Shown in pieces: positions 1,492 through 56,843 of a DNA stretch of 64,000 nucleotides. The notes under the pieces are model-generated. The model was not told where the DNA came from. It did no database searches and saw only the letters and a program-made list of their open reading frames with translations. The DNA is from an uncultured Acidobacteriota bacterium (lineage in GTDB: Bacteria > Acidobacteriota > Vicinamibacteria > Vicinamibacterales > CAVVIG01). The stretch spans positions 14,137 through 78,136 of the forward strand of contig CADEDC010000019.1 of NCBI GenBank assembly GCA_902825985.1, read 5' to 3'. The stretch's first letter is position 1; every line of letters starts with the position of its first letter. The translations under genes and the position numbers were made by a program.

Positions 1492-1761
1492 ATGGTTGAT
1501 ACGTTCGCAGCCGACATCAAGGCGTTCATCGTCAGCAACTTTCTCTTCGGTCAGGAGGGCGAGGGCATCGCGCCCGACCAGTCCTTCCTCGAGAGCGGGA
1601 TCATCGATTCCACCGGCCTGCTCGAACTCGTCGCCTTCGTCGAGCAGACCTACGGTATCTCGATCGGCGATCGCGAGCTGGTGCCCGAGAACCTCGATTC
1701 GCTCCAGAACATCAGCCGCTTCGTCGCCAGGAAGCTGGACACCGTCGGCTCGCGGTCGTAG
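1492..1761 (+). CDS. Acyl carrier protein (phosphopantetheine-binding)
   Basis: 89 aa, acidic. 'GIIDSTGLLELVAFVE' contains the DS(x) phosphopantetheine attachment serine motif. AGAGGA lies just upstream of the ATG. Confidence 0.8.
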   Translation: MVDTFAADIKAFIVSNFLFGQEGEGIAPDQSFLESGIIDSTGLLELVAFVEQTYGISIGDRELVPENLDSLQNISRFVARKLDTVGSRS

Positions 1762-5002: not shown

Positions 5003-5086
5003 GACGATCCATCACCTGACGAGGTGCCCGTCAGTGTACACCACGCGCTGCGGCGCCGCGGACGCGGCACGCCACGGGGCGGGGCG

Positions 5087-25725: not shown

Positions 25726-25806
25726 TCTCGTCACGAGTTCGCGCTCTGTCCGGTCCCGGTGACATCGCAGCCCCCGTAACGTCGAGAAAATCGACAGCGT
25801 TGTTCC

Positions 25807-41982: not shown

Positions 41983-42387
41983 CTAGAACTGCCGCGTCAG
42001 ATCGCCGCCCCGCTTGCCTTCCGGCCGCGAGTGCCAATAGCTCGTGCCGCTCGGCTGGTGCACCATCGGATTGCCGCCAAACGTCCGGCGCAGGATCCCG
42101 ATCGGCGTCATCACCACCAGGTACATCGCCCCCATCACGATCGGCGTGGTGACCTTGGAGATCGCGTGCGCGATCGCCATCCAGCCGCGCTCGACCGGGC
42201 CGAGCCGGGTCGGGATCACCAGGCCGGCGAGCGCCAGGGCGCCGCCCAGCCCACCGAGCACGTAGGTCGTGACGGCGTTGTCGCGCCAGAACGCGATCCC
42301 GGCCAGCACCAGGAAGGCGATGCCGACCGTCAAGCCGAATTTTCGCCCCGCGGCGGCCGTCAATCGAGCTGGAACTCGTCCTGCCAT
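41983..42387 (-). CDS. SxtJ-like small membrane protein
   Basis: 134 aa, 3 hydrophobic helices ('FGLTVGIAFLVLAGIAFW', 'TYVLGGLGGALALAGLVIP', 'VTTPIVMGAMYLVVMTPIGIL'). Lies directly downstream of the carbamoyltransferase and overlaps its 3' end by 28 nt. Confidence 0.6.
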   Translation of the reverse strand: MAGRVPARLTAAAGRKFGLTVGIAFLVLAGIAFWRDNAVTTYVLGGLGGALALAGLVIPTRLGPVERGWMAIAHAISKVTTPIVMGAMYLVVMTPIGILRRTFGGNPMVHQPSGTSYWHSRPEGKRGGDLTRQF

Positions 42388-44186
42388 GCCTTCGTCTCCT
42401 TCCACTCCGGTTGCGCCGACTTCTCGAGCACGAACGGCCCGAGCACCAGCACGTCGATATTCGTGCGCATGAAACAGCGATAGGCGTCCTCGGGCGTGCA
42501 CACGATCGGTTCGCCGCGGACGTTGAACGACGTGTTGACCACCACCGGGCAGCCGGTGCGCGTCTCGAAGGCCTTGATCAGGTGATAGTACGAGCCGTTG
42601 GCCTCGGGCGTGACCGTCTGAATCCGCGCCGAGTAGTCGATGTGCGTCACCGCCGGGATGTCCGACCGCGGCACGTTCAGCTTGTCGATCCCCCACAGCT
42701 GATGCTGCGCGGCGGTCAGCGGGATGCACCGCTCCTTCTTCACCGGCGCCACCAGCAGCATGTAGGGCGAGTCGCTGTCGTGCTCGAAGTAGTCGGCCAC
42801 CCGCTCGCGCAGCACCGACGGCGCGAACGGCCGGAAGCCCTCGCGGAACTTGATCTTGATGTTCATGTCGGTCTGCATCTTCGGACTGCGCGGGTCGCCG
42901 AGGATGCTGCGGGCGCCGAGGGCGCGCGGGCCGAACTCCATGCGGCCGTCGAACCAGCCGACGATCTTCTCGTCCGCCAGGTGCCCGGCGACGTGGTCGA
43001 AGCGTTCGGGATCGGAGAAGCGGCGGTAGCCGGCGTTGACCGACTTCAGGTAGCTCTCGATCTGTTCGGGCGTGAACTGCGGGCCGAGGTACGAGGCGCG
43101 CATCGCATCGCGGCCCGGCACGACGGTGCGCGGCTGCTTGAAGTGGCGATAGTGAATCAGCTGGGCGACGCCGAGCGCGCCGCCGGCGTCGCCCGACGCC
43201 GGCTGGATCCAGACGTGCTTGAACGGCCCTTCGCGGAGCAGCCGGCCGTTGCCGACGCAGTTCAGCGCCACGCCGCCGGCGAGGCACAGGTTCTCGCTGC
43301 CCGTGCGCTTGTGGGCGGTGCGCGCCATGCGCAGCATGATCTCCTCGCAGACCGCCTGCACCGAACGGGCGAGGTCCATCTCCTTCTGGGTCAGCTTCGA
43401 TTCCGGCACGCGGGCCGGACCGCCGAACAGATCGGCGAACGCCTCGTTGGTCATCGTCAGGCCGGTCAGGTAGTTGAAGTACTTCTGATTCAGCCGGAAC
43501 GAGCCGTCCTCCCTGAGATCGAGCAGCTCCTTGTAGATCAGATCGACGTACTTGGGCTCGCCGTACGGCGCCAGCCCCATCACCTTGTACTCGCCGGAGT
43601 TCACCTTGAAGCCCGTGTAATAGGTGAACGCCGAATACAGCAGCCCCAGCGAGTCGGGCCAGTGCAACTCGTCGAGGATCTCGAGGGTGCTGCCGCGTCC
43701 GGCGCCGATCGACGCCGTCGCCCACTCGCCGACGCCGTCCATCGTGAGCACGGCGGCCTGCTCGAACGGCGACGGGAAGAAGGCGCTGGCCGCGTGCGCT
43801 TCGTGGTGCTCGGAGTAGAGAATCGGACCGCTGTAGCCGAGCTCCTGCTGCAGCGTCTTGTCGATGTAGAGCTTCTCCTTGATCCACAGCGGCCCGGCCA
43901 TCAGGAAGGACTGGAAGCCGCGTGGCACGACGCCGAGGTAGGTCTCGAGGATGCGCTCGAACTTCAGCAACGGCTTGTCGTAGAAGCCGACCGCCGCGAG
44001 GTCTGACACGGCGATCCCCGCCTCGCCGAGGCAGAAGCGCACCGCCTCGTGCGGGAAGCCGCTGTCGCCCTTCTTGCGGGTGAAGCGCTCCTCCTGTCCC
44101 GCCGCGACGATCTCACCGTTGCGCAGGAGGGCGGCTGCGCTGTCGTGGTAGAAGGCCGAGATGCCGAGAATGTATCGATCGCTCAT
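42360..44186 (-). CDS. Carbamoyltransferase (NodU/CmcH/TobZ family)
   Basis: 'ILGISAFYHDSAAALL...EERFTRKK', 'EHHEAHAASAF', 'GWFDGRMEFGPRALGARSIL', 'KFREGFRPFAPSV', 'VVVNTSFNVRGEPIVCTP'. Confidence 0.9.
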   Translation of the reverse strand: MSDRYILGISAFYHDSAAALLRNGEIVAAGQEERFTRKKGDSGFPHEAVRFCLGEAGIAVSDLAAVGFYDKPLLKFERILETYLGVVPRGFQSFLMAGPLWIKEKLYIDKTLQQELGYSGPILYSEHHEAHAASAFFPSPFEQAAVLTMDGVGEWATASIGAGRGSTLEILDELHWPDSLGLLYSAFTYYTGFKVNSGEYKVMGLAPYGEPKYVDLIYKELLDLREDGSFRLNQKYFNYLTGLTMTNEAFADLFGGPARVPESKLTQKEMDLARSVQAVCEEIMLRMARTAHKRTGSENLCLAGGVALNCVGNGRLLREGPFKHVWIQPASGDAGGALGVAQLIHYRHFKQPRTVVPGRDAMRASYLGPQFTPEQIESYLKSVNAGYRRFSDPERFDHVAGHLADEKIVGWFDGRMEFGPRALGARSILGDPRSPKMQTDMNIKIKFREGFRPFAPSVLRERVADYFEHDSDSPYMLLVAPVKKERCIPLTAAQHQLWGIDKLNVPRSDIPAVTHIDYSARIQTVTPEANGSYYHLIKAFETRTGCPVVVNTSFNVRGEPIVCTPEDAYRCFMRTNIDVLVLGPFVLEKSAQPEWKETKAWQDEFQLD

Positions 44187-44238
44187 TGTGTGTATGCCGC
44201 CAGTCACGCCGGGAGACGTTGCTCACATCGAAGTCTGA

Positions 44239-45228
44239 TCACAGCTGTTCCGGTTGGGAGCCGAGCCACGGGCCGGCGCGGACCGACAGCCAGTAGCGGA
44301 CGTAGTGCGCCGTCATGCGCAGCCGCCGGAGCACCAGGTACGGCAACAGGTACAGCTTGTGGCGTGCGATCGACTCGCCCAGGTAGACCTCGAGCGGCGA
44401 CATCCGGAACGACAGGAAATCGCGCATCGTGAGGTGAGGCAGCGCCGCGCCGGCGAGCGGCGTCTGCCGGTACACGGCCTGCCACAGCCTGGCGTAGCGG
44501 CGCGGACAGCCGGCGTGCCACGGTCGCGGCGGCCCGTTGAAGTGCAGGATCCGCACGTCGTCGGCCGGCAGGTTCGCCCCGAACCGCTTGTACATCCAGG
44601 TGTCGACGCCGTGGTAGTTCCACTTGCGGTCGAGCGGCAGGAACTCGGCGCCGTCGACCGCGGTGAACGGCTCCTGGTCGACGTGGAACGTCCGGTGGGT
44701 CGAGACGTAGGTCAGGCAGCGGTTCGTGAGGTCGCGCCGGTTCCACTCGTGCACGTCGTAGACGATGACGCCGGTGTTGGGACTGGTCGCATCGTAGTCG
44801 GGCACGCAGGCGCACGGCCGGCCGCCCAGGTCGGTCGCCCACAGCTCCATGACGTCGCCGACGACCAGCGTGTCGGCGTCGATGAACAGCAGCCGTGGAT
44901 GCTGACGCAGGATGTCCGGCAGCAGCAGCGTCGCCACCGTCTCGATGTTGTTCCACTGCGGCGCGTCGCACAGCAACGGCGGGATGCGATAGTCGAACGG
45001 CCGCACGTCGACCGACACCTGGCGCACCGCCGACCGGGCGCAGAGCGCCAGCATCGCCGCGTCGGCGTCCGACAGCACGGCGTCGTGAAACACGTAGATG
45101 CGGAGCGCCTGGCCGGCGGCCGCCGGCGACGCCTCGAACCGGCGCACCAGGGACGTGAGCGACACCGCGCACGGCAGCAGGAACGCCTGGTTCACCGAGT
45201 AGGCGACGACCACCTCGCTCACGCGCAA
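44239..45228 (-). CDS. Glycosyltransferase family 8
   Basis: 'VVVAYSVNQAFLLPCAVSLTSL', DxD 'LLFIDADTLVVGDVMELW' and 'ILHFNGPPRPW'. Confidence 0.8.
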   Translation of the reverse strand: MRVSEVVVAYSVNQAFLLPCAVSLTSLVRRFEASPAAAGQALRIYVFHDAVLSDADAAMLALCARSAVRQVSVDVRPFDYRIPPLLCDAPQWNNIETVATLLLPDILRQHPRLLFIDADTLVVGDVMELWATDLGGRPCACVPDYDATSPNTGVIVYDVHEWNRRDLTNRCLTYVSTHRTFHVDQEPFTAVDGAEFLPLDRKWNYHGVDTWMYKRFGANLPADDVRILHFNGPPRPWHAGCPRRYARLWQAVYRQTPLAGAALPHLTMRDFLSFRMSPLEVYLGESIARHKLYLLPYLVLRRLRMTAHYVRYWLSVRAGPWLGSQPEQL

Positions 45229-46379
45229 TCCCCCGTCGCGGGAGGATCGGGCGCCGTGGTGTCGATCCAGGCCGGCTGCCGTCTGGCCTGCAGCGTCTCA
45301 CGGTAGAGGCCGGTGTAGCGCCGCGCCATCGCCTCGCCGGTGAGGCTCGCCGCGTAGTCGGCAGCCGCGGCGCCGCCGAGCCGGTGCCGCAGCGCCGCGT
45401 CGTCGAGCGCCCGCGCGAGCGCGTCGGCGAGCGCCTCGGCGTTCCGGGCCGGCACCAGGAGGGCGGTTTCCCCATCCTTCAAGACGGACGGATTCTCGCC
45501 GACCGACGTCGCGACGATCGGCCTGCCGCACGCCATCGCCTCGAGGATCACCACCGACATCGCCTCCCAGTAGGAACTCTGGACGAAGATGTCGAAGGTC
45601 GGCAGCAGCGCCGTGGCAGCGTCGCTGCGCCAGCCGGTGAACTCGACACAGTCGGCGAGTCCGAGCTGCGTCCGCAGCGTCTCGAGTTCGGCGCGCATGC
45701 CGCCTTCGCCGACGATCACCAGCCGAAACCGCTGACCGCGCTGCTTCAGCAGCGCCATCGCCTCGAGCAGGGTCGGCACGCCCTTCTGCGGCCCGAGCGT
45801 GCTCATGCTGCCGATGAGCGGCACCGCCGGCACGACGCGCAGCGGCGGCGCCACCGCCTTGCGATCGACGCCGTTCCAGATCGTCCGGATGCGCGCCGGC
45901 GCCAGCCGCAACGTGCGGATGATCGAGTCACGCTGGGCGTTGCCGACCGCCACGAGCTGATCCGGCACGCGCGCGAACAGCCCTTCCATCACCAGGTGCT
46001 TGCGCGTCACGAACGGATAGTTGCCGAAGTGGAAGGTGTGCACGTGCGAGAAGCTGCCGTCGCGCAGGCGCGCCAGGCCGACGTCGATCAGCGACCGCAG
46101 ATCGTGCGTGTGCACGATGTCCACCGCCCGCTCCCGTATCAGATCCAGCACCCGGCGATGGGACGCCAGCCCGGAGGCACCCGCCGCGATCTGGCTGATG
46201 ACCTCGAAGCCGTCGGCTTCGAGGTCGCGTTGCACCTCGCCGCCCTTGTGGATGACCGCCACGGTCACCCGGCACCCGCACCGCCGCAGATGACGCGCCA
46301 GCGTGCCGATGACCTGTTCGGCGCCGCCGCCGAACAGCCCGCCGTTGGTCAGCATCACGTGAGGCATCCGCGCAGGCAT
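45219..46379 (-). CDS. Glycosyltransferase family 4
   Basis: 'GGAEQVIGTLARHL', 'IGSMSTLGPQKGVPTLL' and 'VQSSYWEAMSVVILEAMACGRPIVATSVGENPSVL'. The track ORF to 47564 is an over-extension. Confidence 0.8.
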   Translation of the reverse strand: MPARMPHVMLTNGGLFGGGAEQVIGTLARHLRRCGCRVTVAVIHKGGEVQRDLEADGFEVISQIAAGASGLASHRRVLDLIRERAVDIVHTHDLRSLIDVGLARLRDGSFSHVHTFHFGNYPFVTRKHLVMEGLFARVPDQLVAVGNAQRDSIIRTLRLAPARIRTIWNGVDRKAVAPPLRVVPAVPLIGSMSTLGPQKGVPTLLEAMALLKQRGQRFRLVIVGEGGMRAELETLRTQLGLADCVEFTGWRSDAATALLPTFDIFVQSSYWEAMSVVILEAMACGRPIVATSVGENPSVLKDGETALLVPARNAEALADALARALDDAALRHRLGGAAAADYAASLTGEAMARRYTGLYRETLQARRQPAWIDTTAPDPPATGDCA

Positions 46380-46390
46380 CCTCGGCAGGC

Positions 46391-47890
46391 TCACTTGGTC
46401 AGGACGAACTGGCTCATCACCAGGACGTCGAGGCCGGTGCCGTAGAACACACGAACCCCGTCGCGCGGGCTGCAGACGATCGGCTCGTGGAGGCCATTGA
46501 ACGACGTGTTGACGAGGAACGGCAGACCGGTGACGTCGCGGAAACGCTCGATGAGGCGGCGGAAGCGCGGCGCGCCGGCCTGCGACACCGCGTGGATGCG
46601 CACCGCGGCGCCCGGGCTCGGCAGCAGGTGGCGGAACGGTTCGCCGTCGCGCGGCAGGTAGTCGCACTCCATGAACGGCGCGTCCCGTGGCCCGTCGAAG
46701 TAGCGGGCGACGTCCTCCGCCAGGCCGCTGAGCGCGTAGCCGCGCCACGGCTCGCGCTGCTTGAGGAAGCGATTGAGGTTGTCCAGCACGTACGGCGACG
46801 CCGGATTGGCGAGGATGCAGCGAGCGCCCAGCGCCCGCGGTCCCCATTCCATCGCGCCGTCGAACCAGCCGACGAGGCGGCCGTGCCGCAGCGCCTCCAC
46901 CGCGATGTCGAGCGCGCTGCCGTCGGATTCCCACGTATAGCGCAACTTGCAGTTGTCGAGCACCTGCTTCATCTCGTCCGGCGTGTAGGCCGGGCCGAGA
47001 AACGGTGATGCGAGCGCCGGCGCGGCGCCGCTGCCATGCAGCGCGGCGCCGACCGCGAGGCCGCTGTTGCCCGGATCGATGGGGATGAAGACCTCCTCGA
47101 AGGTGCCGGCCTGACGAACACGCGTGTTCATCGCCGAGTGGTAGAACAGGCTGCCACCGAGGCACACTCTGGTCGCGCCGGTACGCGTCCGCACCTGCTC
47201 GAGGAAAGCGACCAGCACATCGCCCAGGTGGGCCTGCAGCGCAGCGGCGAGGGTCGCGACCTCGGGCCGGCCCGGCGTCATCGACGGCAGCCAGCCGGCG
47301 AGGCGCGATTCGAGCGCCGGATCGACCTGCAGTCCGTCGGCACCGAGGGTGATCAGGCCGGCGACCCGGGCGTCGCGCGCCGCCGGCTGCAGCCGCGCCA
47401 TCGCCTCGAAACGCTGCGTCGCGGTCTCGGACTGGAAACCGAACGCCGCCGCAATCCGCGAGAACACGTCGGCGAGGCTCGGACCGGTCCATGGCCAGTC
47501 GACGGCCGAGACGGCAGCGCCTTCCCCCTGCCAGACCGAGATGCCGGGCGCCTCGTGATCGCAAATCACGATCGCCGCTGCCGCGAACGGCGACGTCAGG
47601 TAGGCCGCGCAGGCGTGCGCGAAATGATGGTCGATCGGCTCGGCGCCGGCACGGCAGGGGGCGCCGTCGCGGATCGTCGCGACGACCTGCCGGGTGACGT
47701 CGCCGGACGAGTAGTGCGACCGTTCGAGCAGCAGCTTCAGCGCCGCGTCGGCGAACGCGGCATCACCGGTGACGCGGCCGCCGCGAACGCGGGCGAGACG
47801 CTCCTCGGCGCACACGCCGACCAGCCCCGCCTCGGTGGCGATGGCGGCCGACGCGTTTCGCGTTCCTCCACCGAATCCAGCGACTACCAC
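46391..47890 (-). CDS. Divergent carbamoyltransferase-family paralog
   Basis: 'DHHFAHACAAYLTSPF', 'GWFDGAMEWGPRALGARCILANP' and 'FLVNTSFNGLHEPIVCSP' are retained. N-terminal 'FYHDSAAAL' is replaced by 'GTRNASAAI', and 'FRPFAPS' by 'WRGYALS'. GTG 47890 is preceded by GGGAG. ATG 48055 lies upstream of the predicted promoter. Confidence 0.6.
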   Translation of the reverse strand: MVVAGFGGGTRNASAAIATEAGLVGVCAEERLARVRGGRVTGDAAFADAALKLLLERSHYSSGDVTRQVVATIRDGAPCRAGAEPIDHHFAHACAAYLTSPFAAAAIVICDHEAPGISVWQGEGAAVSAVDWPWTGPSLADVFSRIAAAFGFQSETATQRFEAMARLQPAARDARVAGLITLGADGLQVDPALESRLAGWLPSMTPGRPEVATLAAALQAHLGDVLVAFLEQVRTRTGATRVCLGGSLFYHSAMNTRVRQAGTFEEVFIPIDPGNSGLAVGAALHGSGAAPALASPFLGPAYTPDEMKQVLDNCKLRYTWESDGSALDIAVEALRHGRLVGWFDGAMEWGPRALGARCILANPASPYVLDNLNRFLKQREPWRGYALSGLAEDVARYFDGPRDAPFMECDYLPRDGEPFRHLLPSPGAAVRIHAVSQAGAPRFRRLIERFRDVTGLPFLVNTSFNGLHEPIVCSPRDGVRVFYGTGLDVLVMSQFVLTK

Positions 47891-48163: not shown

Positions 48164-49225
48164 TCAGCGTTGCACGCCGGCCGCTCCGGCGAGACGCCGC
48201 ACCAGGCTCGATCGCAGGTCGGCCGCCGCCCGGACCAGACCGCGAACCGATACCGGGTAGAGCGCCAGGACACCATGATCGCGCCGCTCCGGATGCCAGC
48301 GGTCCTGCCACGCCTCCGACGACCCCAGGAACTCGTACCCCTCCAGGCCCTGTTCGAACGCCGCCTGAATCGAGGTGTGCACCAGCTGCAGCCCCGGTCC
48401 GTGCGCGGCCAGCGCCTCCACGTAAGCCAGCTTGAGCCCCCAGATCCGCCGGTGCGCGACAACCGCCAGTTCCATGGCCACGGCCGTGGACCCGGCCATC
48501 AGCGTGGAAACCCGGAGTCGACCGCGGCCGGCGGCCCGCTCGCCGTACGCCAGGAAGAAGCCCCGCAGGTCGGCCCGGTCCGCCAGCGAGGAGCCGCGGC
48601 GCCCCTTCCACCCGGTGGCTTCGATCCGTGCCAGCCGTTCCAGCACGCCGGCGACGGCGTCCGGTGACGGCGTGTCGACGGTGACATCCACGGCGCCGGC
48701 CGCCGCGGCCAGTGCCGCCCGCTGGCGCTCCAGGCCGCGCCGCGTCCGGCTGGAGAGCCCCGCGAGAAAGTCGGCCCAGGAACCGCGCACCTCGACCACG
48801 TTCGACGATCCCGCCGGCCGATCGATGGTGATCGCCCGCCCTCCGGCGTTTCGTCGGACGGCGTGGACGAACGGGCCGTCGTGCGGCACCCGCTCGAAGA
48901 CGCTCGGCTGTCGGCACCGGATGAGTTCGAGGGCGAGGGCGTCGGCTGCAGCGTCCGACGCGAACAGGCAGCCCGACGGTTCGTAGAGCGCCGCGGCGCC
49001 GAGCAGCGCCAGCCGTCGCCGGCGCCGGTCCACCGCCAGCGGCGCCGCCGCCACGAGCCGCCCGTTGTCGCGAACCGCGACGACGTGCAGGTCGCGCTCG
49101 TCGTGCAGCGCCGCCGCGCATGCCATCTGCCAGTCATGTTCGAGCAGCGGCGAGCCGTGGCGCGCCGCCAGCGCGTCCCAGTCGTCGCGCACCGCCTGCA
49201 AGGCTTCGGTCGAGCGAATCAGCAT
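48164..49225 (-). CDS. CelD/FemAB-like GNAT-fold acyl/aminoacyl transferase
   Basis: 'ALQAVRDDWDALAARHGSPLLEHDWQMACAAAL...HGPGLQLVHTSIQAAFEQGLEGYEFLGSSEAWQDRW'. Same architecture as 50150-51325 and the C-half of 14987-17359. Confidence 0.7.
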   Translation of the reverse strand: MLIRSTEALQAVRDDWDALAARHGSPLLEHDWQMACAAALHDERDLHVVAVRDNGRLVAAAPLAVDRRRRRLALLGAAALYEPSGCLFASDAAADALALELIRCRQPSVFERVPHDGPFVHAVRRNAGGRAITIDRPAGSSNVVEVRGSWADFLAGLSSRTRRGLERQRAALAAAAGAVDVTVDTPSPDAVAGVLERLARIEATGWKGRRGSSLADRADLRGFFLAYGERAAGRGRLRVSTLMAGSTAVAMELAVVAHRRIWGLKLAYVEALAAHGPGLQLVHTSIQAAFEQGLEGYEFLGSSEAWQDRWHPERRDHGVLALYPVSVRGLVRAAADLRSSLVRRLAGAAGVQR

Positions 49226-49229
49226 CGCC

Positions 49230-50153
49230 TCAGCGCAGCCCCGCGGCCACCGCCTTCAGTGTGGCATCCTGCTCGAGCAGCGTGCGGGCCCGCGCCGCCT
49301 CGCGGCTGTCCGGCGCCTCCACAATCTGCTGCCGCAGGTGCCGGATGCCGTCCTCCACCCGTCCCTGTTTCAGCACCACCAGCGCGAGGTGATAGTGGAT
49401 GCAGTAGATGCCCGGCTTCCTCCGGTAGGCGTCGGTCAGCCGGGCGTACGCCTCATCGGTCCGGCCGGCGTGATAGAGCGCCCAGCCGTAGGTGTCCAGC
49501 GCATCGGCATCGTCGGGCTCCATGGTCACCGCCCGTTCGGCCCAGGCGACTGCCGCTGCCGGGTCGCCGACGCCGGACTCGATCTCCACCCACGCCAGGC
49601 CGTTGTACAGGCCAGCCGTCGCCATGCCGCCGGCCAGTGCCCGCTGGTAGGCGTCGCGTGCCTCGCGGAACCGGCCGGCCGATTCCAGCCGCAAGCCGTA
49701 CTTGTAGTCCCGGGAGTCGAGGTACGAGCGATACGTGACGCCGAGACCGGCAAGGATGGCGACCGCTGTGATGGCGTAGCCGACGGTTCGGCGGTGGCGG
49801 CGGAGCAGCAGGCCGAGACCGCAGGCGATGCCGGCGGCCGCCGCCATCAGGTCGGCGGCTTCGACGCTGCGGTTCGGTACCCAGATCTGCTGGATCTCGT
49901 CCAGGACCGCGACCAGCCCGGTGACTGCGATGGCCGCCAGCGTCGCCGTCCGATCGCTCGCGACGACCGTGCGCGCCACTACCCGCACGAACAGGACAAT
50001 CGCGCACGACTGGACGAAGTGGAGCAGCTTGTCGACGCCGGGCAGGTAGAGGAGCAGCCGATCGAGCTGCTGGCCGCCGAGGTCTTCGAGCACGAACAGG
50101 GCAGCGAGGCCGCCGACCCCGGCCAGCGCCAGCAGTGCGACGCGCCGGTTCAC
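49230..50153 (-). CDS. Fusion: VanZ-like membrane domain + TPR repeats
   Basis: 'DKLLHFVQSCAIVLF...VLDEIQQIWVPNRSVEAADLMAAAAG', then TPR-like 'YNGLAWVEIESG...ALDTYGWALYHAGRTDEA'. GTG start in a GTGA overlap with the upstream stop. Confidence 0.65.
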   Translation of the reverse strand: MNRRVALLALAGVGGLAALFVLEDLGGQQLDRLLLYLPGVDKLLHFVQSCAIVLFVRVVARTVVASDRTATLAAIAVTGLVAVLDEIQQIWVPNRSVEAADLMAAAAGIACGLGLLLRRHRRTVGYAITAVAILAGLGVTYRSYLDSRDYKYGLRLESAGRFREARDAYQRALAGGMATAGLYNGLAWVEIESGVGDPAAAVAWAERAVTMEPDDADALDTYGWALYHAGRTDEAYARLTDAYRRKPGIYCIHYHLALVVLKQGRVEDGIRHLRQQIVEAPDSREAARARTLLEQDATLKAVAAGLR

Positions 50154-51325
50154 GAGCCCGCCTCCGGTGCCTTCTGGGCTCGCGCGTCCTGGTGGCACAC
50201 CGCCGCCGGCGGCGGGACGGCGTGGCGCAGCCGCTCGACGAATTCGAGCGCCCGCGATCGCACGGTCCCGGAGAACAGCGTCACGACCCGATGCCAGCGC
50301 ACGGTGTCGGTCCACTGACGCTCCCACTCGTACGGCGCTCCCGGGAAATCGAACTGTCCGACGCCGCGGCCGATCAGGCCGTCGATGAGGCGCGCCCGGA
50401 GATAGGTGGCCGGGCTGACGCTCTTCAGCGTCTCGTCGAAACTGGTCTTCAGGTAGAAGTAGGTGCCGGCGTGGACGTAGCCGAAGTTGTGCGCGATCGG
50501 CCGACCGTCCAGCGTCAGCCACTGCAGGTGCAGCCGCCCGCGCGCGAGCGCATCGCGGCCCAGGTCGCGATAGAAACCGATCTGCCGCGGCACGGCGGTG
50601 ACCGCGGTCCCGTGATTCTGCTTCCAGCTTGCCCGCTCGATGTCGAGCAGCTGCTCGTAGGCGGCGTCGAAATCGCCGGTCGACGTCAGCTCGTGCACGG
50701 CGACGCGTCCGAGCGACTCGAGCTTGCGCTCGATCCGTTTCAGGTAGTTCCGGAACTTGCTGCTGCGCGCCGACAGGTAGGCGCCGTAGGATGCCGGCAA
50801 CGCAAGGAAGTATGACGGATCGCCGCGGCGATCGTGGTGCAGCAGCCGCCGGCGCGTCAGCGCGTCGCGCAGCGTCGCCGTCAGCGGGTCGTCTTCGAGC
50901 AGGCGTGCCATGCGGAAGCAGTCCCAGGACGCCTCGAGCGCCAGGAGCGTGTCGAGGACGCCGTCGACCACCGCGGCGCTCGGCTCGGCCAGCAACCAGT
51001 CGCTGTGCGTGTTGTACTCGTCGGTGAGCGGTGCCAGCAGCGTGACCGGCTGACGCATCACGTGCACGCGCCGCAACACCAGCGGTACGAGGGCGACCGC
51101 GGCGCCCGCCCGCACGCCGCGGATCAGGAACAGCGCGTCGTCGCGCTGCCGGTGATGGGCCAGCGCCGCCTGCGTCCACTCCCAGGATGCGGACGGCTGG
51201 TGGTCGCGGCCGGCGAACAGCGCGTCCCAGTCGGCGCGCAATCCCGCCAGCTCGCGCCGGTCCGTGACCACCTCGAAGTGGATGGCGGCGGCGTGAGCGG
51301 GCGTGGACGCGCGCACGGTGGCCAA
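50150..51325 (-). CDS. CelD/FemAB-like GNAT-fold acyl/aminoacyl transferase
   Basis: 'LAGLRADWDALFAGRDHQPSASWEWTQAAL...SPATYLRARLIDGLIGRGVGQFDFPGAPYEWERQW'. Confidence 0.7.
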   Translation of the reverse strand: MATVRASTPAHAAAIHFEVVTDRRELAGLRADWDALFAGRDHQPSASWEWTQAALAHHRQRDDALFLIRGVRAGAAVALVPLVLRRVHVMRQPVTLLAPLTDEYNTHSDWLLAEPSAAVVDGVLDTLLALEASWDCFRMARLLEDDPLTATLRDALTRRRLLHHDRRGDPSYFLALPASYGAYLSARSSKFRNYLKRIERKLESLGRVAVHELTSTGDFDAAYEQLLDIERASWKQNHGTAVTAVPRQIGFYRDLGRDALARGRLHLQWLTLDGRPIAHNFGYVHAGTYFYLKTSFDETLKSVSPATYLRARLIDGLIGRGVGQFDFPGAPYEWERQWTDTVRWHRVVTLFSGTVRSRALEFVERLRHAVPPPAAVCHQDARAQKAPEAGS

Positions 51326-51334
51326 TCCTGCCAG

Positions 51335-52912
51335 CTAGCGGCCGCGGGCCGCCGGCATCGGGACGGCCAGGGCCCGCTCGCGCAGGTTCGGCCGGTCCAC
51401 CTTGCCGGTGCCGGCCAGCCGCGGCAGATCGGGTTCCACGACGATGCGGACCGGCACCTTGTGCGGCGCCAGGTGCCCGGCGCAGTGCGCCTGCAGCATC
51501 CGTTCGCCGTCCGCCGCCTCGCGCCTGAGCACGACGAACGCCACCGGCACCTCGCCCTGCAGGTCGTGCGGCGCCGCGACGACGGCCGCCTCGGCCACCT
51601 GTTCGTGCGCGTGCAGGACGTCTTCGATCTCCTTGGCCCCGACGCGATGGGCGCCGACCTTGATCATGTCGTGACGCCGGCCGACGAGGAACAGGTAGCC
51701 ATCGGCGTCGGCGTAGCCGAGATCGCCGGTCCGATAGCCGAGGGGACCGAAACGTTCGGCGGTCTCCGCCGGGTTGTTCCAGTAGCCGCGGGCGATGTTC
51801 GGTCCGCTCGCCACGAGTTCGCCGACTTCGCCGATGGCCGCCGTCGAGCCGTCTTCGCGGACGACCGTGATGGCGACCGACGGGATCGGGACGCCGATCG
51901 ACCCGAGCTTGTCGGCGAGCCGGTGCGGCGGGACGTAGGTGAGGCGGGCGGCCGCCTCGGTGGCGCCGTACATGACGAAGAACGCGGCCCGCGGGCCGCG
52001 CGCCAGCCATTCCTGGACCTTCGGCGGCGGCATGTTGCCGCCGGCCTGGGTCACGTAACGCAGCGCCGGCAGTTCGGTGGTCTCGAGGTTCGATCGGTGC
52101 AGCAGCAGGGCGAAGGTGGACGGGACGCCGGCGAATCCGGTGACCGCATGCGTGCGCATCGCGTCGAGCACCACGTTCGGAAAGGCGAAGCGGTTGTCGA
52201 TGACGATCGAGCCGCCGACCGCCAGGTGACTGTGGAGGACGGACAGGCCGTAGACGTAGTAGAACGGCAGCACGCACATCGCCCGGTCAGCCGCGGACAG
52301 GCCGAGGTAGCTGACGATGGCCTCGGCATTCGCCACGAAGTTGCGATGGCTCAGCATCACGCCGCGCGGCTCGCCGGTGCTGCCGGACGTGTAGATGATG
52401 GCGGCGAGGTCCTCCTCGCGGCCGCCATCGGCGCCGGCGGCGCCGACGGCCGTGTGCGGCGCGGCGGTCGCCAGCGCCGCGTCCATCGGCCGCACGCGGT
52501 CCGGGCGCGTCGCCGTCGGCGGCCAGGTGCCGAGCGAGAGCGCGATCGGGACGTCGTGGACCGGGCTGGTGGCCGCGAGGCCGCGCCAGGTCGGCGGGTC
52601 GAACAGGCAGGCGCGCGGCTGGCAGTCGCGCACCGCCGGGGCCAGCCGGTCGCTGCGCGCCCCGGCCGGCAGCGGCACCGCGACGGCGCCGCCCCGCATG
52701 ACGCCCAGGTAGGCGGCAACCTGCTCGACGCTGTTCTCGAGCGCGATCACGACGCGGTCGCCGGGTGCGACACCCGCGGCCTGCATCGCCTGCGCGACGC
52801 CGGTGACCGCGGCGTCGAGCGCCGCGTACGTGGTGGTCTGGTCGCCGTCGATCAACGCGACCGCGTCCGGCGTGCGGCGGGCGCTGCGCTCCAGCAGGTC
52901 CGGGATGCGCAT
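51335..52912 (-). CDS. Acyl-CoA (AMP-forming) ligase, exosortase-A-system-associated type
   Basis: 'AAIIYTSGSTGEPRGVMLSHRN', 'YGATEA', 'YRTGDLGYADADGYLFLVGRRHDMIKVGAHRV' and 'GKVDR'. TGATG overlap with the asnB-like stop. Confidence 0.85.
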   Translation of the reverse strand: MRIPDLLERSARRTPDAVALIDGDQTTTYAALDAAVTGVAQAMQAAGVAPGDRVVIALENSVEQVAAYLGVMRGGAVAVPLPAGARSDRLAPAVRDCQPRACLFDPPTWRGLAATSPVHDVPIALSLGTWPPTATRPDRVRPMDAALATAAPHTAVGAAGADGGREEDLAAIIYTSGSTGEPRGVMLSHRNFVANAEAIVSYLGLSAADRAMCVLPFYYVYGLSVLHSHLAVGGSIVIDNRFAFPNVVLDAMRTHAVTGFAGVPSTFALLLHRSNLETTELPALRYVTQAGGNMPPPKVQEWLARGPRAAFFVMYGATEAAARLTYVPPHRLADKLGSIGVPIPSVAITVVREDGSTAAIGEVGELVASGPNIARGYWNNPAETAERFGPLGYRTGDLGYADADGYLFLVGRRHDMIKVGAHRVGAKEIEDVLHAHEQVAEAAVVAAPHDLQGEVPVAFVVLRREAADGERMLQAHCAGHLAPHKVPVRIVVEPDLPRLAGTGKVDRPNLRERALAVPMPAARGR

Positions 52913-54924
52913 CAGCGGGACGGCACCGCGGCGTCGACGCGGTCGACGACGGTGCGAATGACGGCCGGCGCCGCCGCCTGGGGGCGCTGCCGGATGAACT
53001 GCTCGTGCAGCAACTGTGTCGACAGGATGGCGACGACCGCCATGTTGTCGGCGTTGGAGAACTGGCCGCCGGCGGCCCGGGCGCGGCACTTGGCGATGAG
53101 CTGTTCGGCCGCCGCCGGATTGAAGATGCCGGCCGCTGCAAGCGCCTCCCGGCTGGCCACCGCGTCGACCCACTCGCGTGCCTCGGGGGCCGCGAACGAG
53201 AGCGCGTCGGGGGCGCGATACGGCTGCTTCGGCCGGCTGAGAATCGACGCCGGAACGACGCCGCGCGCCGCCCGCTTCAGGACGTGCTTCTCGTCGAGCC
53301 CGCGCAGCTTGTAGGAAGCCGGCAGCGACTCGGCCAGGGCGGCGACGTTGCGATCGAGGAACGGGAAGCGCCCTTCGACCGAATTGGCCATCAGCATGCG
53401 GTCGCCCTGCGACGACAGCAGGTAGCCGGAGAGCAGCGTGACCACCTCCAGGTACTGATCCTGCGCGAGCGGCGACCAGGTCGCGAACGCCGGCGGCAGA
53501 CCGCCCGTCAGTTCGGCGATCGCATCGCCCGCCGGGTCGCGTCGCATCGCCGGTGCCAGCAGCCGCTTGAGCGCCGTGGCGCCGCGCCAGCGGAGATCGT
53601 GGCCGAAGCCCGGTGCCGCCGCCCGCTCGAGCCCCTGACCGAAGAACTGATGGGCGATGGCGCGCTGCGCAACCGGCGATCGTGCCAGGTAGGGATACAG
53701 GCGATCGAGCAGCCGCGGCCGCCAGGCCGACGCCGGCTGGCGGGCCCAGAATCGCCGGATGCGCGCCTCGCGGAACAGATCGTAGCCGGCGAACATCTCG
53801 TCGGCGCCTTCGCCGGTGAGCACGACCTTGATGCCCGCCTGACGCACCAGCCGCGACAGCAGCAGCAAGGGGGCGGGCGCGGTCCGCAGCAGCGGCCGTT
53901 CGCTGTGCAGCACGGTTTCGGGAAACGCGCGGGCGATGTCGCCGCGCGACACGACCAGCTCGTGGTGGTCGCTGCCGATGGCGGCGGCCATCTCGCGCTG
54001 ATAGCGCGTCTCGTCGTACTCGGCGTCCTCGAAGCGCACCGAGAAGGTCGAGAAGTTGGAGCCCTTCGCGCGCAGGCCGAGCGCGGCGATCAGCGAGCTG
54101 TCGAGTCCGCCGGAGAGGTACGAGCCGACCGGGACGTCGGCGCGCAGCATCCGCAGGCCGGTGGCCGCGGTCAAGGCGTCGCGCACCTGCTCGGCCGCCT
54201 CGTCGACGGTCGCGGCGGCCGGCGCCGTCGCGCCCGGGACGGGGAAGGCCGGCTCGTAGGATCGCGCGACGGTGACGCCGTCCGGTCCGTAGCTGCGGAC
54301 GGTGCCCGGCTCCACCTCCTCGATGCCGGCGAAGGCCGTGCGCGGCGCCATCGGCGCCCAGAAGGTCAGCACCTGATCGAGGCCGATCGGATCGATGCGG
54401 CGCGGCAGCGCCGGCTCGCCGGCGAAGAGCGCCTTCACTTCCGAGGCGAAGTAGAGACGGCCATCCTGCTCGGCGACGTGCAGCGGCCGCACCCCGAACG
54501 GATCGCGGGCGAGCGTGAGCGTCCGCGCCTCGCTGTCCCAGAGCGCGACCGCCCATTGGCCGTTCATGCGGCGGAACGCCTGGGCCCCCCACTCCTCGTA
54601 GGCGTGGACGATGACCTCCGTGTCGCTGCGCGTCCGGAACCGATGACCGCGGGCTTCGAGGTCGGCGCGCAGCTCGACGTAGTTGAAGATCTCGCCGTTG
54701 AAGACCACCCAGATGGTGTCGTCCTCGTTGGCGAGCGGCTGCTGTCCCGCGGCGAGATCGATGATCGACAGCCGCGCATGACCGAGCCCGACCTGCCGAT
54801 CCCGGTAGATGCCGAACTCGTCCGGCCCGCGATGCCGCAGGGCACCGGCCATCATCGCCAGCTGATCGCGATCGGGGGGCGCCAGATCAGCCCGACGATT
54901 GAGGATGCCGGCGATGCCGCACAT
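52912..54924 (-). CDS. asnB: Asparagine synthase (glutamine-hydrolysing) family amidotransferase (exosortase-A-associated amidotransferase-1-like)
   Basis: 'MCGIAGIL' and PP-loop 'YLSGGLDSS'. 670 aa. Confidence 0.9.
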   Translation of the reverse strand: MCGIAGILNRRADLAPPDRDQLAMMAGALRHRGPDEFGIYRDRQVGLGHARLSIIDLAAGQQPLANEDDTIWVVFNGEIFNYVELRADLEARGHRFRTRSDTEVIVHAYEEWGAQAFRRMNGQWAVALWDSEARTLTLARDPFGVRPLHVAEQDGRLYFASEVKALFAGEPALPRRIDPIGLDQVLTFWAPMAPRTAFAGIEEVEPGTVRSYGPDGVTVARSYEPAFPVPGATAPAAATVDEAAEQVRDALTAATGLRMLRADVPVGSYLSGGLDSSLIAALGLRAKGSNFSTFSVRFEDAEYDETRYQREMAAAIGSDHHELVVSRGDIARAFPETVLHSERPLLRTAPAPLLLLSRLVRQAGIKVVLTGEGADEMFAGYDLFREARIRRFWARQPASAWRPRLLDRLYPYLARSPVAQRAIAHQFFGQGLERAAAPGFGHDLRWRGATALKRLLAPAMRRDPAGDAIAELTGGLPPAFATWSPLAQDQYLEVVTLLSGYLLSSQGDRMLMANSVEGRFPFLDRNVAALAESLPASYKLRGLDEKHVLKRAARGVVPASILSRPKQPYRAPDALSFAAPEAREWVDAVASREALAAAGIFNPAAAEQLIAKCRARAAGGQFSNADNMAVVAILSTQLLHEQFIRQRPQAAAPAVIRTVVDRVDAAVPSR

Positions 54925-55913
54925 CAGCCGTGCACCTCGGCGATCGGCTCGACGAGCAGCGGACGCATGTGCAGGTATTTCGTCGTCCGGCGCTTCTGAT
55001 CGATGTCGCGGTACACCCGCGTCACCTGTTCGGCGGTCAGGCCGATCGCCGCGCCGACCTCGCCGGCCGGCACGCCGTGATTGCGGCCGTACAGGCAGAG
55101 GTCCATCTTCTGGTAGGGCAGCGCGAAGTAGTACTCTTCCTGCGATTGCGGCATCGAGAACGTGTCGGTCGTCGGCGGACGCCGGCGGATGTCCTCCGGC
55201 ACGCCGACGTGCTCGGCGAGGGCGTAGACCTGTGTCTTGTAGAGATGGGCGATCGGCTTGATGTCAGCGGCGCCGTCACCGAGCTTGACGAAGAAGCCCT
55301 GGTCGTACTCCAGACGGTTCGGCGTGCCGGCCACCACGTAGTTCAGACGATCCGCGTGGTAGTACTCGGTCATCTTGCGGACGCGCTGCTTGTAGTTGGT
55401 GGCGGCAATCATCTGCTGATAGGCGGCAGCCGACAGGCGCGACGTGTGGCGCTCACCGGTGGGTGACTCGATGGTCAACTCCGAGACGTTGAGCCGCTCG
55501 CCGTCGAGGATGGACGGCAGCGTGATCTTGCACTTGAACCCCGGACCATACTCGGGGAACACCGTGCGGATGGCCTCGATCTGCTTGTCGTAGCAGCCGG
55601 CGGCGGCGAGAATCGGCGCGATCTCTTCGAGCTGCGCCGGAACGCCGAGCTTCGTCGTCAGCATCCGGCCCAGGGTCAGCGACTCCGAGGACGAATCGCG
55701 CTCGGGCATGAACAGCACCTGCACGCGTTCGGCGCCCAGGGCGCGGACGCACAGGCAGGTGACGACCGAGCTGTCGATGCCGCCGGACAGGCCGACGACG
55801 ACGCCGCGGCGGTGCACCGACTGCACCTGCTGGCGTATGGCCTGTTCGATGGTGCTGGCGGTCTGTGCGAGATCGATCCGCAGCACGTCTGGAGTGAACG
55901 TCGTCTGAGACAC
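54924..55913 (-). CDS. NAD synthetase (NadE)-family PP-loop ATP-pyrophosphatase/amidoligase
   Basis: 'VVVGLSGGIDSSVV' PP-loop and 'YKQRVRKMTEYYHADRLNYVVAGTPNRLE'. GTG start. Stop shares one base with the asnB-like ATG. Confidence 0.75.
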   Translation of the reverse strand: MSQTTFTPDVLRIDLAQTASTIEQAIRQQVQSVHRRGVVVGLSGGIDSSVVTCLCVRALGAERVQVLFMPERDSSSESLTLGRMLTTKLGVPAQLEEIAPILAAAGCYDKQIEAIRTVFPEYGPGFKCKITLPSILDGERLNVSELTIESPTGERHTSRLSAAAYQQMIAATNYKQRVRKMTEYYHADRLNYVVAGTPNRLEYDQGFFVKLGDGAADIKPIAHLYKTQVYALAEHVGVPEDIRRRPPTTDTFSMPQSQEEYYFALPYQKMDLCLYGRNHGVPAGEVGAAIGLTAEQVTRVYRDIDQKRRTTKYLHMRPLLVEPIAEVHG

Positions 55914-55972
55914 GCTTTTTCCCTTTCGGTCGCTGACCCGTCGATAGTGGTGGAATGGTCGCGGACGTTACT

Positions 55973-55988
55973 AGCAAGGACCACTCCC
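55973..55988 (-). promoter_or_regulatory. Weaker sigma54-type candidate (minus strand GGGAGT-GGTCC-TTGCT)
   Basis: GG-N10-GC spacing and a perfect TTGCT -12. The -24 element is poor. Lies 60 nt upstream of GTG 55913 and 103 nt downstream of the palindrome at 56092-56115. Confidence 0.25.
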
Positions 55989-56091
55989 GCAGCCCAGCCG
56001 GCGTCAGAAACGTCGGCAAAGACAGGAGTTCTCCTGGCGTGCACCGGAACAGTCGCCGCCCCTCCGCCGGAAGTATCGGCTTCTCGGGAGA

Positions 56092-56115
56092 TTAGTCTCC
56101 AGAATCGGAGACTAA
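56092..56115. promoter_or_regulatory. Inverted repeat TTAGTC-N12-GACTAA (9-bp perfect arms TTAGTCTCC/GGAGACTAA)
   Basis: AT-rich palindrome in the divergent intergenic region between the NadE-like gene (-) and the LMW-PTP gene (+). Same architecture as the 1215, 60861 and 48093 sites. Confidence 0.4.
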
Positions 56116-56279
56116 GTTCCCGCGCCGCCGCTGAATCATATCTTGCGCAGCCGTATGTATCGGCGTCTCCGCCGCCGCCGCCGACCGGCCGGACCCTATG
56201 CTAACGTCGAAAGACAGTGGCTCAGGAGGCGTCTCTTCCCGCGCGGTGGCTGCGCCGGGTGCTCACGTCGGCCCCGGCG

Positions 56280-56843
56280 ATGGAGTTCAAGCGCGCGGCG
56301 CGTGACGCCGTCTGGGCGCTGCGCGAACGGGGCGTCCAGAACCCGCCGTGGCCGGCGCGGGTCGACGGTGTGCTCTTCGTCTGTTACGGCAACATCTGCC
56401 GCAGCCCGTTCGCGGCGCGGCTCGCCGCCCTCCGCCTCGAGCAGGCCCGGATTTCCGGCATCCGCTGCGCGTCGGCTGGATTTCGCACCAGCCAGCGGGC
56501 CGCTTCGCCGCCCGACGCCGTCGCCACCGCGCGGCGCTACCAGGTGCAGCTCGAAGACAACCGGCCGACGCTCCTCAGCGACGAGCTGGTGCGCTCGCAC
56601 GACGTCGTGTTCGTCATGGAGCCCGGTCATCTGGCCCAGTTGCGGCGGCGCTGGCCGACCGAACATGCACGGTTCTTCCTGCTGCCGCGCTTCGAGGTGC
56701 CGGAGCCGGGTGTCGGGCCCTTCGAGCGGGTGCACTTCGTCGACCCGTTCGGCCGCGGCGAAGCGGCCTTCGTCGACTCCTACGCCCGGATTGCCCGGGC
56801 CGTGGACCGGGTCGTCGCCCTCTGTGCCGCATCCCGCAGCTGA
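56280..56843 (+). CDS. Low-molecular-weight protein-tyrosine phosphatase (Wzb-like)
   Basis: 'VLFVCYGNICRSPFAA' (C-X5-R-S P-loop) and a 'DPFG' Asp loop. Start uncertain (GTG 56217 or ATG 56280). Confidence 0.75.
   Translation: MEFKRAARDAVWALRERGVQNPPWPARVDGVLFVCYGNICRSPFAARLAALRLEQARISGIRCASAGFRTSQRAASPPDAVATARRYQVQLEDNRPTLLSDELVRSHDVVFVMEPGHLAQLRRRWPTEHARFFLLPRFEVPEPGVGPFERVHFVDPFGRGEAAFVDSYARIARAVDRVVALCAASRS

Follow-up and report, generated by a model that had tools for sequence, protein, structure and literature searches.

The window analysed here is a stretch of 64,000 nt (64-73% G+C) from an uncultured Acidobacteriota bacterium of the order Vicinamibacterales (contig CADEDC010000019.1, positions 14,137 to 78,136), and it forms one large exopolysaccharide (EPS) locus of the Wzx/Wzy type. 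The closest named homologues belong to metagenome-assembled genomes of Vicinamibacterales. Within this locus, six consecutive genes on the minus strand (48164-55913) make up a block that brings together a NadE-like protein, an AsnB-like protein, an adenylating ligase, two GNAT transferases and a VanZ-TPR membrane protein. Genes were called by framing with the G+C content of third codon positions (GC3) together with domain searches (Pfam, NCBIfam), and the junctions between them were read straight from the sequence.

The first gene encodes a NadE-like PP-loop ATP-pyrophosphatase of 329 aa (54924-55913; PF02540, 178.6 bits). It is followed by an AsnB-like glutamine amidotransferase of 670 aa (52912-54924), with GATase_7 and Asn_synthase domains and a match to TIGR01536, and by an ANL adenylating ligase of 525 aa (51335-52912; AMP-binding and AMP-binding_C), which we call type 2. 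Next come GNAT1, a dupli-GNAT transferase with a predicted FemX fold (50150-51325; PF13480, 99.8 bits), the VanZ-TPR protein (49230-50153; PF04892, NF037970 and TPR families) and GNAT2, a second PF13480 GNAT of 353 aa (48164-49225; 83.4 bits). The junctions, in this order, are -1, -1, +9, -4 and +4 nt. The NadE-like and AsnB genes share one nucleotide at 54924 (TGATG), as do the AsnB and ligase genes at 52912, the ATG of which starts the ligase; 9 nt separate the ligase from GNAT1, GNAT1 and VanZ-TPR overlap by 4 nt (GTGA, 50150-50153), and a gap of 4 nt precedes GNAT2. Neither a sigma-70-like site nor a convincing terminator was found inside the block. Upstream of it, on the same strand, a non-coding leader (55914-56115) carries a palindrome with 9-bp arms (CTTAGTCTCC...GGAGACTAAT) and a GG-N10-GC element before the GTG start codon of the NadE-like gene.

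An earlier reading of this DNA, hereafter the original prediction, had described a six-gene amidation and acylation block with these domains and overlaps. All six open reading frames and all the domain calls proved right, the idea of an amidation/acylation block seems reasonable to us, and the decision to leave chemistry and substrate unassigned holds.

Conservation of the cassette

A scan with one genome per species scored over 8000 NadE-like candidates and sampled 80 loci (numbered with an L below), whose NadE-like proteins are 60-79% identical to that of the window. These loci span at least eight phyla (Acidobacteriota, Alpha-, Beta- and Gammaproteobacteria, Myxococcota, Actinomycetota, Spirochaetes, Zixibacteria and Eisenbacteria). 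With an AsnB orthologue defined by at least 45% identity, the AsnB gene lies immediately downstream of the NadE-like gene in 67 of the 80 loci, immediately upstream in five, within 4 kb in three and elsewhere in the locus in one; it is absent from three, and in the remaining one the contig is too short to decide its position. Thus, the two genes adjoin each other in 72 loci and are adjacent or no more than 4 kb apart in 75. Moreover, the identities of the two proteins to their window counterparts covary (r = 0.87). In about 65 loci, an ANL ligase gene comes next, and in 56 the cassette includes a small carrier protein of a single family, to which the acyl carrier protein (ACP) of the window also belongs; most of the loci have no GNAT gene. 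Because the same order of NadE-like, AsnB and ligase genes recurs across these phyla, the arrangement is far beyond chance, and its most conserved gene is the NadE-like one. The NadE-like partner had been seen as standing outside the classic gene set, yet it is no oddity of this locus: it belongs to a widespread cassette, found as an operon on pSymB of Sinorhizobium meliloti.

In some genomes, the NadE-like protein is fused to other enzymes. Among representatives at 50% identity, there is a ligase::NadE-like fusion of 849 aa, whose three members lie on separate contigs of different origin, and a fusion to a 4'-phosphopantetheinyl transferase (PPTase) and one of the form NadE-like::AMP-binding_C::PP-binding are each known from a single sequence, in which a read-through artefact is possible. 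Judged from their domains, these three architectures link the NadE-like protein to carrier-protein chemistry.

A search of the literature for this gene combination returned nothing relevant. The block is a version, so far new, of a known but chemically unsolved cassette. In 29 loci, many of them proteobacterial, a PrmC/HemK-like methyltransferase gene follows the cassette, about 4.6 kb downstream of the NadE-like gene (for example in L045, whose protein scores 201.7 against a cut-off of 199.1 for TIGR03534). PrmC enzymes N-methylate glutamine amides, and the cassette amide may therefore be N-methylated in those loci. The block of the window has no PrmC-like gene.

The NadE-like protein

The NadE-like protein is a member of NF002048/PRK00876, named 'NAD(+) synthase' (514.5 bits, cut-off 313), which it matches over positions 4-327 of 330, and PF02540 matches it in two stretches. 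A canonical glutamine-type NadE is encoded by a 569-aa open frame on another contig of the same genome. When 40 relatives from the same genus, family and order were added, the window genome alone among the 41 passed the NF002048 cut-off; the gene is absent from all 40 relatives, none of which scores above 95 bits. Each relative has other NadE-family matches, for the most part in open frames of about 500-700 aa like the canonical NadE of the window genome. Similarly, a canonical NadE is present in each of five other cassette genomes (Mesorhizobium, Tessaracoccus, a Mycobacterium metagenome-assembled genome (MAG), 'Ca. Defluviibacillus' and an acidobacterial MAG). The NadE-like copy is thus accessory, additional to the housekeeping source of NAD in this genome. 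The original prediction would have had to be given up if the protein were the only NAD synthetase of the organism and its position were not conserved; since a canonical NadE is present and this copy is accessory, with AsnB paired to it in 75 of the 80 loci, that concern falls away.

The AlphaFold2 (AF2) model of the protein (predicted local distance difference test, pLDDT, 94.9) is closest among PDB folds to the short NadE enzymes (TMt 0.84-0.86). In the model, an insertion of about 50 aa is filled by a three-stranded sheet (strands 127-131, 145-149 and 155-159). We compared the active site by aligning Bacillus subtilis NadE, identical to PDB 1EE1/1KQP, with 68 members of the NadE-like family. 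The PP-loop SGGxDS and the Mg/ATP ligands (S43, G44, G45, D47, S48, T197, E202, D213 and K226) are invariant in the 68 members, and the B. subtilis residues S46, G47, G48, D50 and S51 are essentially invariant across the family. Outside the PP-loop, 15 of the 19 compared residues of the site for ATP and nicotinic acid adenine dinucleotide (NaAD) are conserved (B. subtilis numbering: N133, R137, R139, Y144, T157, E162, F167, F168, K170, D173, D177, K186, T208, K258 and R259). The changes that run through the family are Y32->Q, T169->V, E223->Y and H257->A/Q, at positions which we take to lie near the nicotinate end of NaAD. In addition, the NadE-like protein has L153->V; together with Y144 and D177, L153 presumably belongs to the adenosine pocket formed by the partner subunit. 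Since most ATP/NaAD-site residues are kept, the adenylation machinery is intact, and the substrate may still bear a nucleotide-like handle. A wholesale loss of the residues that bind nicotinate is not an apt description of this subfamily.

The NadE-like protein of the window thus has in common with the NH3-dependent NadE enzymes (EC 6.3.1.5; B. subtilis 1KQP/1NSY, Pyrococcus horikoshii 2E18, Helicobacter pylori 1XNG) its fold, the PP-loop SGGIDS and most residues of the ATP/NaAD site. Unlike these, it is an accessory copy, shows the three-stranded insert and the four substitutions, and has AsnB, ligase and ACP as obligate neighbours, to which it is sometimes fused. The original prediction had also drawn an analogy to the WbpG/PseA-type enzymes of acetamidino sugars; no such family is found among the 13 NCBIfam matches of the protein (E ≤ 0.01), and an identity as a WbpG/WbuX-type N-acetyl-sugar amidotransferase was rejected.

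One of 14 well-known control genomes passes the NF002048 cut-off; should the cassette be present there, this organism would lend itself well as a model. The chromosome of Mesorhizobium sp. ISC25 encodes a canonical NadE of 686 aa, a cassette copy at 6.43 Mb and two further PF02540 matches, one at 2.92 Mb with the split pattern typical of the NadE-like type and one at 2.61 Mb in a 363-aa open frame.

The carrier protein and the Sinorhizobium meliloti operon

When searched by tblastn against plasmids, the NadE-like protein matches 76 Sinorhizobium plasmid records with about 56% identity over 99% of its length. The corresponding region of S. meliloti pSymB is annotated asnB - SMb20651 (ACP) - SMb20650 (ligase) - nadE. 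We searched the proteins of this operon against the window genome. The S. meliloti NadE matches the NadE-like gene of the window and no other (55.7%), the AsnB has the block AsnB as the best of six paralogues (50.5% against 34-38%), and SMb20651 has a single match, at 1516-1734 of the window (53%, E 1e-21). Thus, NadE-like, AsnB and ACP are reciprocal best or only matches to the S. meliloti operon; the ligase SMb20650 matches that of the window weakly (36%).

The ACP gene (1498-1761, plus strand; PF00550, 27.8 bits) is the sole SMb20651-type match of the genome, with an E value of 1.5e-23 for its 53% identity to SMb20651. It lies on the other strand, about 47 kb from the nearest gene of the block, at the opposite end of the EPS locus and between an XrtA-type deacetylase gene and a FemAB-family gene. 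The original prediction had missed this carrier protein in its gene set.

In the published account, SMb20650 is described as co-transcribed with the ACP SMb20651 (Ramos-Vega et al. 2009, Microbiology 155:257, as summarised in PMC7232532), and its expression led to acylated SMb20651 in vivo; the ligase was unable to replace FadD for long-chain fatty acids (PMC7232532). A literature search on SMb20649, SMb20652 and nadE1 returned unrelated work on NadE1(Gln) and one transcriptome mention of smb20650.

The two systems thus share four functions, with orthologous NadE-like, AsnB and ACP. They differ in gene order and in the place of the ACP, which is inside the operon in S. meliloti. Moreover, the ligases are of different ANL types, the window one having no FD motif (LPFYYVYGLS/MYGATEAAARLT versus LPLAFDYGLYQ/MYGLTECKRCT), and unlike the S. 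meliloti operon, the cassette of the window is extended by the GNAT-VanZ/TPR-GNAT genes and lies inside an EPS locus. New in the window are the distant ACP, the second ligase type and the coupling of a FemX-fold GNAT to VanZ-TPR, along with an AsnB and a ligase under the XrtA-family cut-offs and a NadE-like protein in which most NaAD/ATP-site residues are kept.

The AsnB-like protein and the ligase

The block AsnB has an N-terminal MCGIAG, a PP-loop SGGLDSS and a TIGR01536 score of 513.3 bits (cut-off 267), a membership that is no proof of asparagine synthesis. In the PDB, it comes closest to 7YLZ, a hydroxyamidotransferase. The original prediction had placed this protein and the ligase in families associated with exosortase A (XrtA). 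Both fall below the cut-offs, the AsnB with 413.9 bits against 816.9 for TIGR03108 and the ligase with 370.1 against 592.35 for TIGR03098, and XrtA membership was rejected for both. The cassette AsnBs of Sideroxydans, Mesorhizobium and Tessaracoccus likewise reach 385-417 bits on TIGR03108, so these proteins form a separate AsnB subfamily. The XrtA/PEP-CTERM set (TIGR03098, TIGR03108, TIGR03019 and TIGR03006) comprises the same kinds of enzymes in the same kind of EPS locus, and the window does hold members of TIGR03006 and TIGR03019, at the end opposite the block; however, the set has no model for a NadE-like or a VanZ-TPR protein, and neither GNAT of the block matches TIGR03019.

The window genome has six AsnB paralogues, three of them on one contig (C71). 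A second paralogue of the window, of 611 aa (7919-9754, plus strand), scores 509.7 bits on TIGR03108, higher than the block AsnB and likewise below the cut-off.

As for the ligases, the SMb20650-like type 1 has the motifs LPLAFDYGLYQ and MYGLTECKRCT, with an aspartate which we take to be that of the amino-acid-activating A domains at the same position. Type 2, with LPFYYVYGLS and MYGATEAAARLT, occurs in the window, in other Acidobacteriota and in Actinomycetota, and in five loci (L013, L015, L018, L023 and L085) it is encoded directly beside an ACP of the SMb20651 family. The PDB neighbours of the window ligase are the A domain of LgrA, malonyl-, oxalyl- and succinylbenzoyl-CoA ligases and VinN, which hints at a small, possibly dicarboxylic, acid as its substrate. 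In the acidobacterial loci L015 and L020, both ligase types are found by one ACP (in L015 in the order type 2, ACP, type 1), so that one NadE-like/AsnB pair may be supplied with two different acids.

The GNATs and the VanZ-TPR protein

GNAT1 and GNAT2 are paralogues with 27% identity. GNAT1 has no match in a sequence search of the PDB. Its AF2 model (pLDDT 95.2), compared with the PDB by Foldseek, has as its best fold match the FemX of Weissella viridescens (E 4e-11, TMt 0.70, identity about 11%), and the 'FemAB/CelD-type' label of the original prediction is thus borne out by fold for GNAT1. Further matches are Sbb17 and Sba18, which are tRNA-dependent peptide synthases, the C-terminal domain of MprF and tandem GNATs; among them are dupli-GNATs that use coenzyme A (CoA) thioesters, namely VipF, the clavulanate tandem GNAT and NMT. 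Neither GNAT matches the FemAB XrtA family TIGR03019 at E ≤ 0.01 (cut-off 260.35). FemX/FemABX and MprF share the dupli-GNAT fold of GNAT1 and pass activated aminoacyl groups on to amines or hydroxyls in envelope precursors; in GNAT1, by contrast, the donor would perhaps be an acyl-ACP or acyl-CoA, and the acceptor probably an EPS unit instead of peptidoglycan or lipid. GNAT2 is optional, being present in L007, L016, L019 and L074 and absent after VanZ-TPR in L093, L094 and L096.

The VanZ domain passes both cut-offs (PF04892, 31.2 bits against 30.1; NF037970, 33.4 against 20). The protein has about five transmembrane helices, the VanZ/lipocone motifs DKLLH and DEIQQ..R and a C-terminal TPR domain; by eye, the motifs and the TPR domain would lie on the periplasmic side. 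The fusion family is small (about 53 clusters in a protein search), and a metagenome scan with the VanZ-TPR query gave one weak, partial match. In all four contexts reached through VanZ-TPR, and in five more reached through the NadE-like protein, the VanZ-TPR gene directly follows a PF13480 GNAT gene downstream of NadE-like, AsnB and ligase, often with an overlap of 4 nt between GNAT and VanZ-TPR. In the contexts looked up, the fusion was found only downstream of the cassette.

In a paper on the lipocone proteins, VanZ belongs to a superfamily predicted to cleave or transfer the head groups of lipid carriers, with VanZ-1 linked to exopolysaccharide genes (PMC12419801), and a preprint reports a lipid-linked-oligosaccharide pyrophosphatase activity for YfiM and cites LLP1 (bioRxiv 10.64898/2026.09.16.752124). 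Like these lipocone proteins, the window protein has a VanZ domain with conserved polar motifs and an EPS association; its C-terminal TPR fusion and its strict coupling to GNAT and NadE cassette are not described for lipocone proteins in the available parts of these sources.

Proposed function of the block

Our preferred reading, to which we give a probability of roughly 0.45, is that the block is a lineage-specific, carrier-protein-based tailoring cassette that provides a Wzx/Wzy-type EPS with an amide-bearing acyl or aminoacyl substituent, with transfer by the GNATs and with VanZ-TPR acting on the lipid-linked unit. The type-2 ligase would adenylate a small carboxylic acid and load it as a thioester on the SMb20651-type ACP (1498-1761). 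The AsnB-like protein, with glutamine-derived NH3, and the NadE-like protein, with free or channelled NH3, would each adenylate a free carboxylate of this intermediate, or of a close relative, and convert it into a carboxamide. The FemX-fold GNATs would then shift the group from the phosphopantetheine thioester to an amino or hydroxyl group of a lipid- or nucleotide-linked sugar, for which the XrtA-type deacetylase could expose the acceptor amine. Once the decorated unit has been flipped to the periplasmic face, its undecaprenyl-diphosphate head group would be the target of the VanZ(lipocone)-TPR protein. What the analysis shows is the gene content, the synteny, the orthology to S. meliloti, that the NadE-like gene is accessory, and the folds and fusions; we infer the substrate, the target of each amidation, an ACP (and not tRNA or CoA) as the donor for the GNATs and the VanZ step.

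This logic is known from other envelopes. In the D-alanylation of teichoic acids by DltABCD and in the addition of glycine to Vibrio lipid A by AlmEFG, an ANL ligase likewise loads a small carrier and a transferase decorates an envelope glycopolymer; those transferases are MBOAT or LPLAT proteins, not dupli-GNATs, and to our knowledge neither system has amidotransferases or a VanZ partner. Similarly, OxyD-type AsnB homologues amidate a thioester-bound dicarboxylate, the malonamyl starter of oxytetracycline. OxyD is thus an AsnB-family enzyme acting on a thioester-tethered acid, as we propose here, with homology at the family level; unlike the cassette of the window, it belongs to a polyketide context and is not known to have a NadE-like partner.

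Several points weigh against the tailoring cassette. The kept NaAD/ATP residues may leave room for a NaAD-like, ADP-bearing substrate or for NaAD itself. The S. meliloti operon lies outside polysaccharide loci, next to sugar-transporter, aldo/keto reductase and minCDE genes and with no glycosyltransferases near. Since the window ligase is not an orthologue of SMb20650 (36%, different A4/A5 motifs), the acylation seen in vivo is not directly transferable. In nine sister loci with VanZ-TPR, as in the block itself, the carrier gene is neither in the block nor within 9-10 kb, so this lineage could use CoA in place of an ACP. Finally, because the closest structural relatives of the modelled GNAT1 use aminoacyl-tRNA, the GNATs may be independent of the cassette.

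It is tempting to speculate further that the NadE-like protein is a new kind of amidoligase, which would keep the nucleotide-handle pocket of NadE and act with its dedicated AsnB on a di- or tricarboxylic acid bound as a CoA or ACP thioester; FemX-fold enzymes taking acyl-ACP instead of aminoacyl-tRNA would install the group, and the VanZ-lipocone/TPR protein would process the undecaprenyl-diphosphate unit in the periplasm. We regard this stronger form as doubtful. If true, an undescribed and very widespread chemistry of glycan decoration would be hidden behind the labels 'NAD synthase' and 'asparagine synthase'.

Two unrelated systems might instead be merely co-transcribed: the cassette would make its own soluble or lipid metabolite, and the GNATs, served by VanZ-TPR, would aminoacylate the glycan from aminoacyl-tRNA. 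The non-EPS context of the S. meliloti operon fits such a split, as do the tRNA-dependent FemX and Sbb17 as best structural matches of GNAT1, the scarcity of GNATs among the 80 loci and the lack of an ACP inside the block. However, the GNAT/VanZ-TPR pair follows the cassette directly, in the same operon, in four of four VanZ-TPR contexts and five further loci, the only cassette-type ACP of the genome adjoins a FemAB-family gene, and CoA-thioester enzymes are among the fold matches of GNAT1. Taken together, we consider two separate systems rather unlikely.

AsnB homologues amidate uronates and peptide stems, and the AsnB-like and NadE-like proteins might, like WbpS, amidate the uronic-acid carboxylates of nucleotide- or lipid-linked sugars, with ligase, ACP and GNATs adding a separate acyl group. 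The position of the block within an EPS locus would agree with this, and the NaAD/ATP residues kept by the NadE-like protein, with the presumed adenosine pocket (Y144, L153->V, D177) among them, would suit a nucleotide-diphospho-uronate resembling NaAD. Yet the pair stays with ACP and ligase where glycan genes are not near, as in S. meliloti, some genomes have the NadE-like protein joined to a ligase, a PPTase or a carrier domain, and an identity of 60-79% across phyla argues for one fixed small substrate and not for variable glycans; uronate amidation is clearly unlikely in our eyes. That the NadE-like protein is a plain second ammonia-dependent NAD+ synthetase co-expressed with the EPS genes is very unlikely: it has the family name, the fold and the 15 of 19 conserved site residues in its favour, but the gene is an extra copy in six of six genomes, is absent from the 40 relatives, shows translational coupling with an AsnB paralogue of its own in 72 of 80 loci and, in some genomes, forms fusions with ligase, PPTase or carrier domains, and the protein has the 50-aa insertion and the changes Y32Q, T169V, E223Y and H257A/Q at positions that presumably contact the nicotinate end of NaAD.

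The cassette matters beyond this genome. Automatic annotation reads it as housekeeping NAD and asparagine synthesis and so distorts the metabolism reconstructed for bacteria of soil and water. The window shows that one kind of NadE-like/AsnB pair is served by two ligase types that are not orthologous. It also ties the cassette to genes of transfer and processing (the FemX-fold GNATs, VanZ-TPR and an XrtA-type deacetylase) and so offers a testable route from carrier to polymer, and the VanZ/lipocone field gains a tightly coupled enzymatic partner that can be tested.

Other genes of the EPS locus

The EPS locus around the block encodes a flippase (5024-6670), a Wzy-like polymerase (20577-22088), an AT3-SGNH O-acyltransferase (25780-27837), several glycosyltransferases, two carbamoyltransferases, a low-molecular-weight (LMW) phosphatase and a set of HAD-UbiA and flavin adenine dinucleotide (FAD)-oxidase genes. 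At the end opposite the block lie the genes of an XrtA-system polysaccharide deacetylase (279-1181, plus strand; TIGR03006, 396.6 bits against 276.2) and of a FemAB-family XrtA-associated protein (1878-2906, plus strand; TIGR03019, 331.2 bits against 260.35), possibly enzymes that prepare the acceptor and carry out a transfer, respectively. In L007, L021 and L024, a TIGR03006 deacetylase gene immediately precedes the NadE-like gene, and in L023 one adjoins the cassette ACP.

An ATP-grasp::PF13480 fusion of 1040 aa (14237-17359, plus strand; PF15632 and a C-terminal PF13480) contributes the fourth FemX-type domain of the locus and a second, carrier-independent route to amide bonds. The gene of a DegT/DnrJ-type sugar aminotransferase (2911-4161, plus strand) is split by a single in-frame TAG at 3673-3675; positions 28-196 of the Pfam model precede this stop, and positions 228-359 follow it without a change of frame. 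A pseudogene, an assembly error or read-through could account for this. With a dead gene, acylation would have to rely on the deacetylases for its amine acceptor.

Finally, pairs of carbamoyltransferase genes with SxtJ-like, DUF5989 and LMW phosphotyrosine phosphatase genes adjoin the cassette in L093-L096, L006 and L007 as well as in the window (42360-47890 and 56205-56843). Since these genes recur in Vicinamibacterales-type loci, the whole decoration set travels together.

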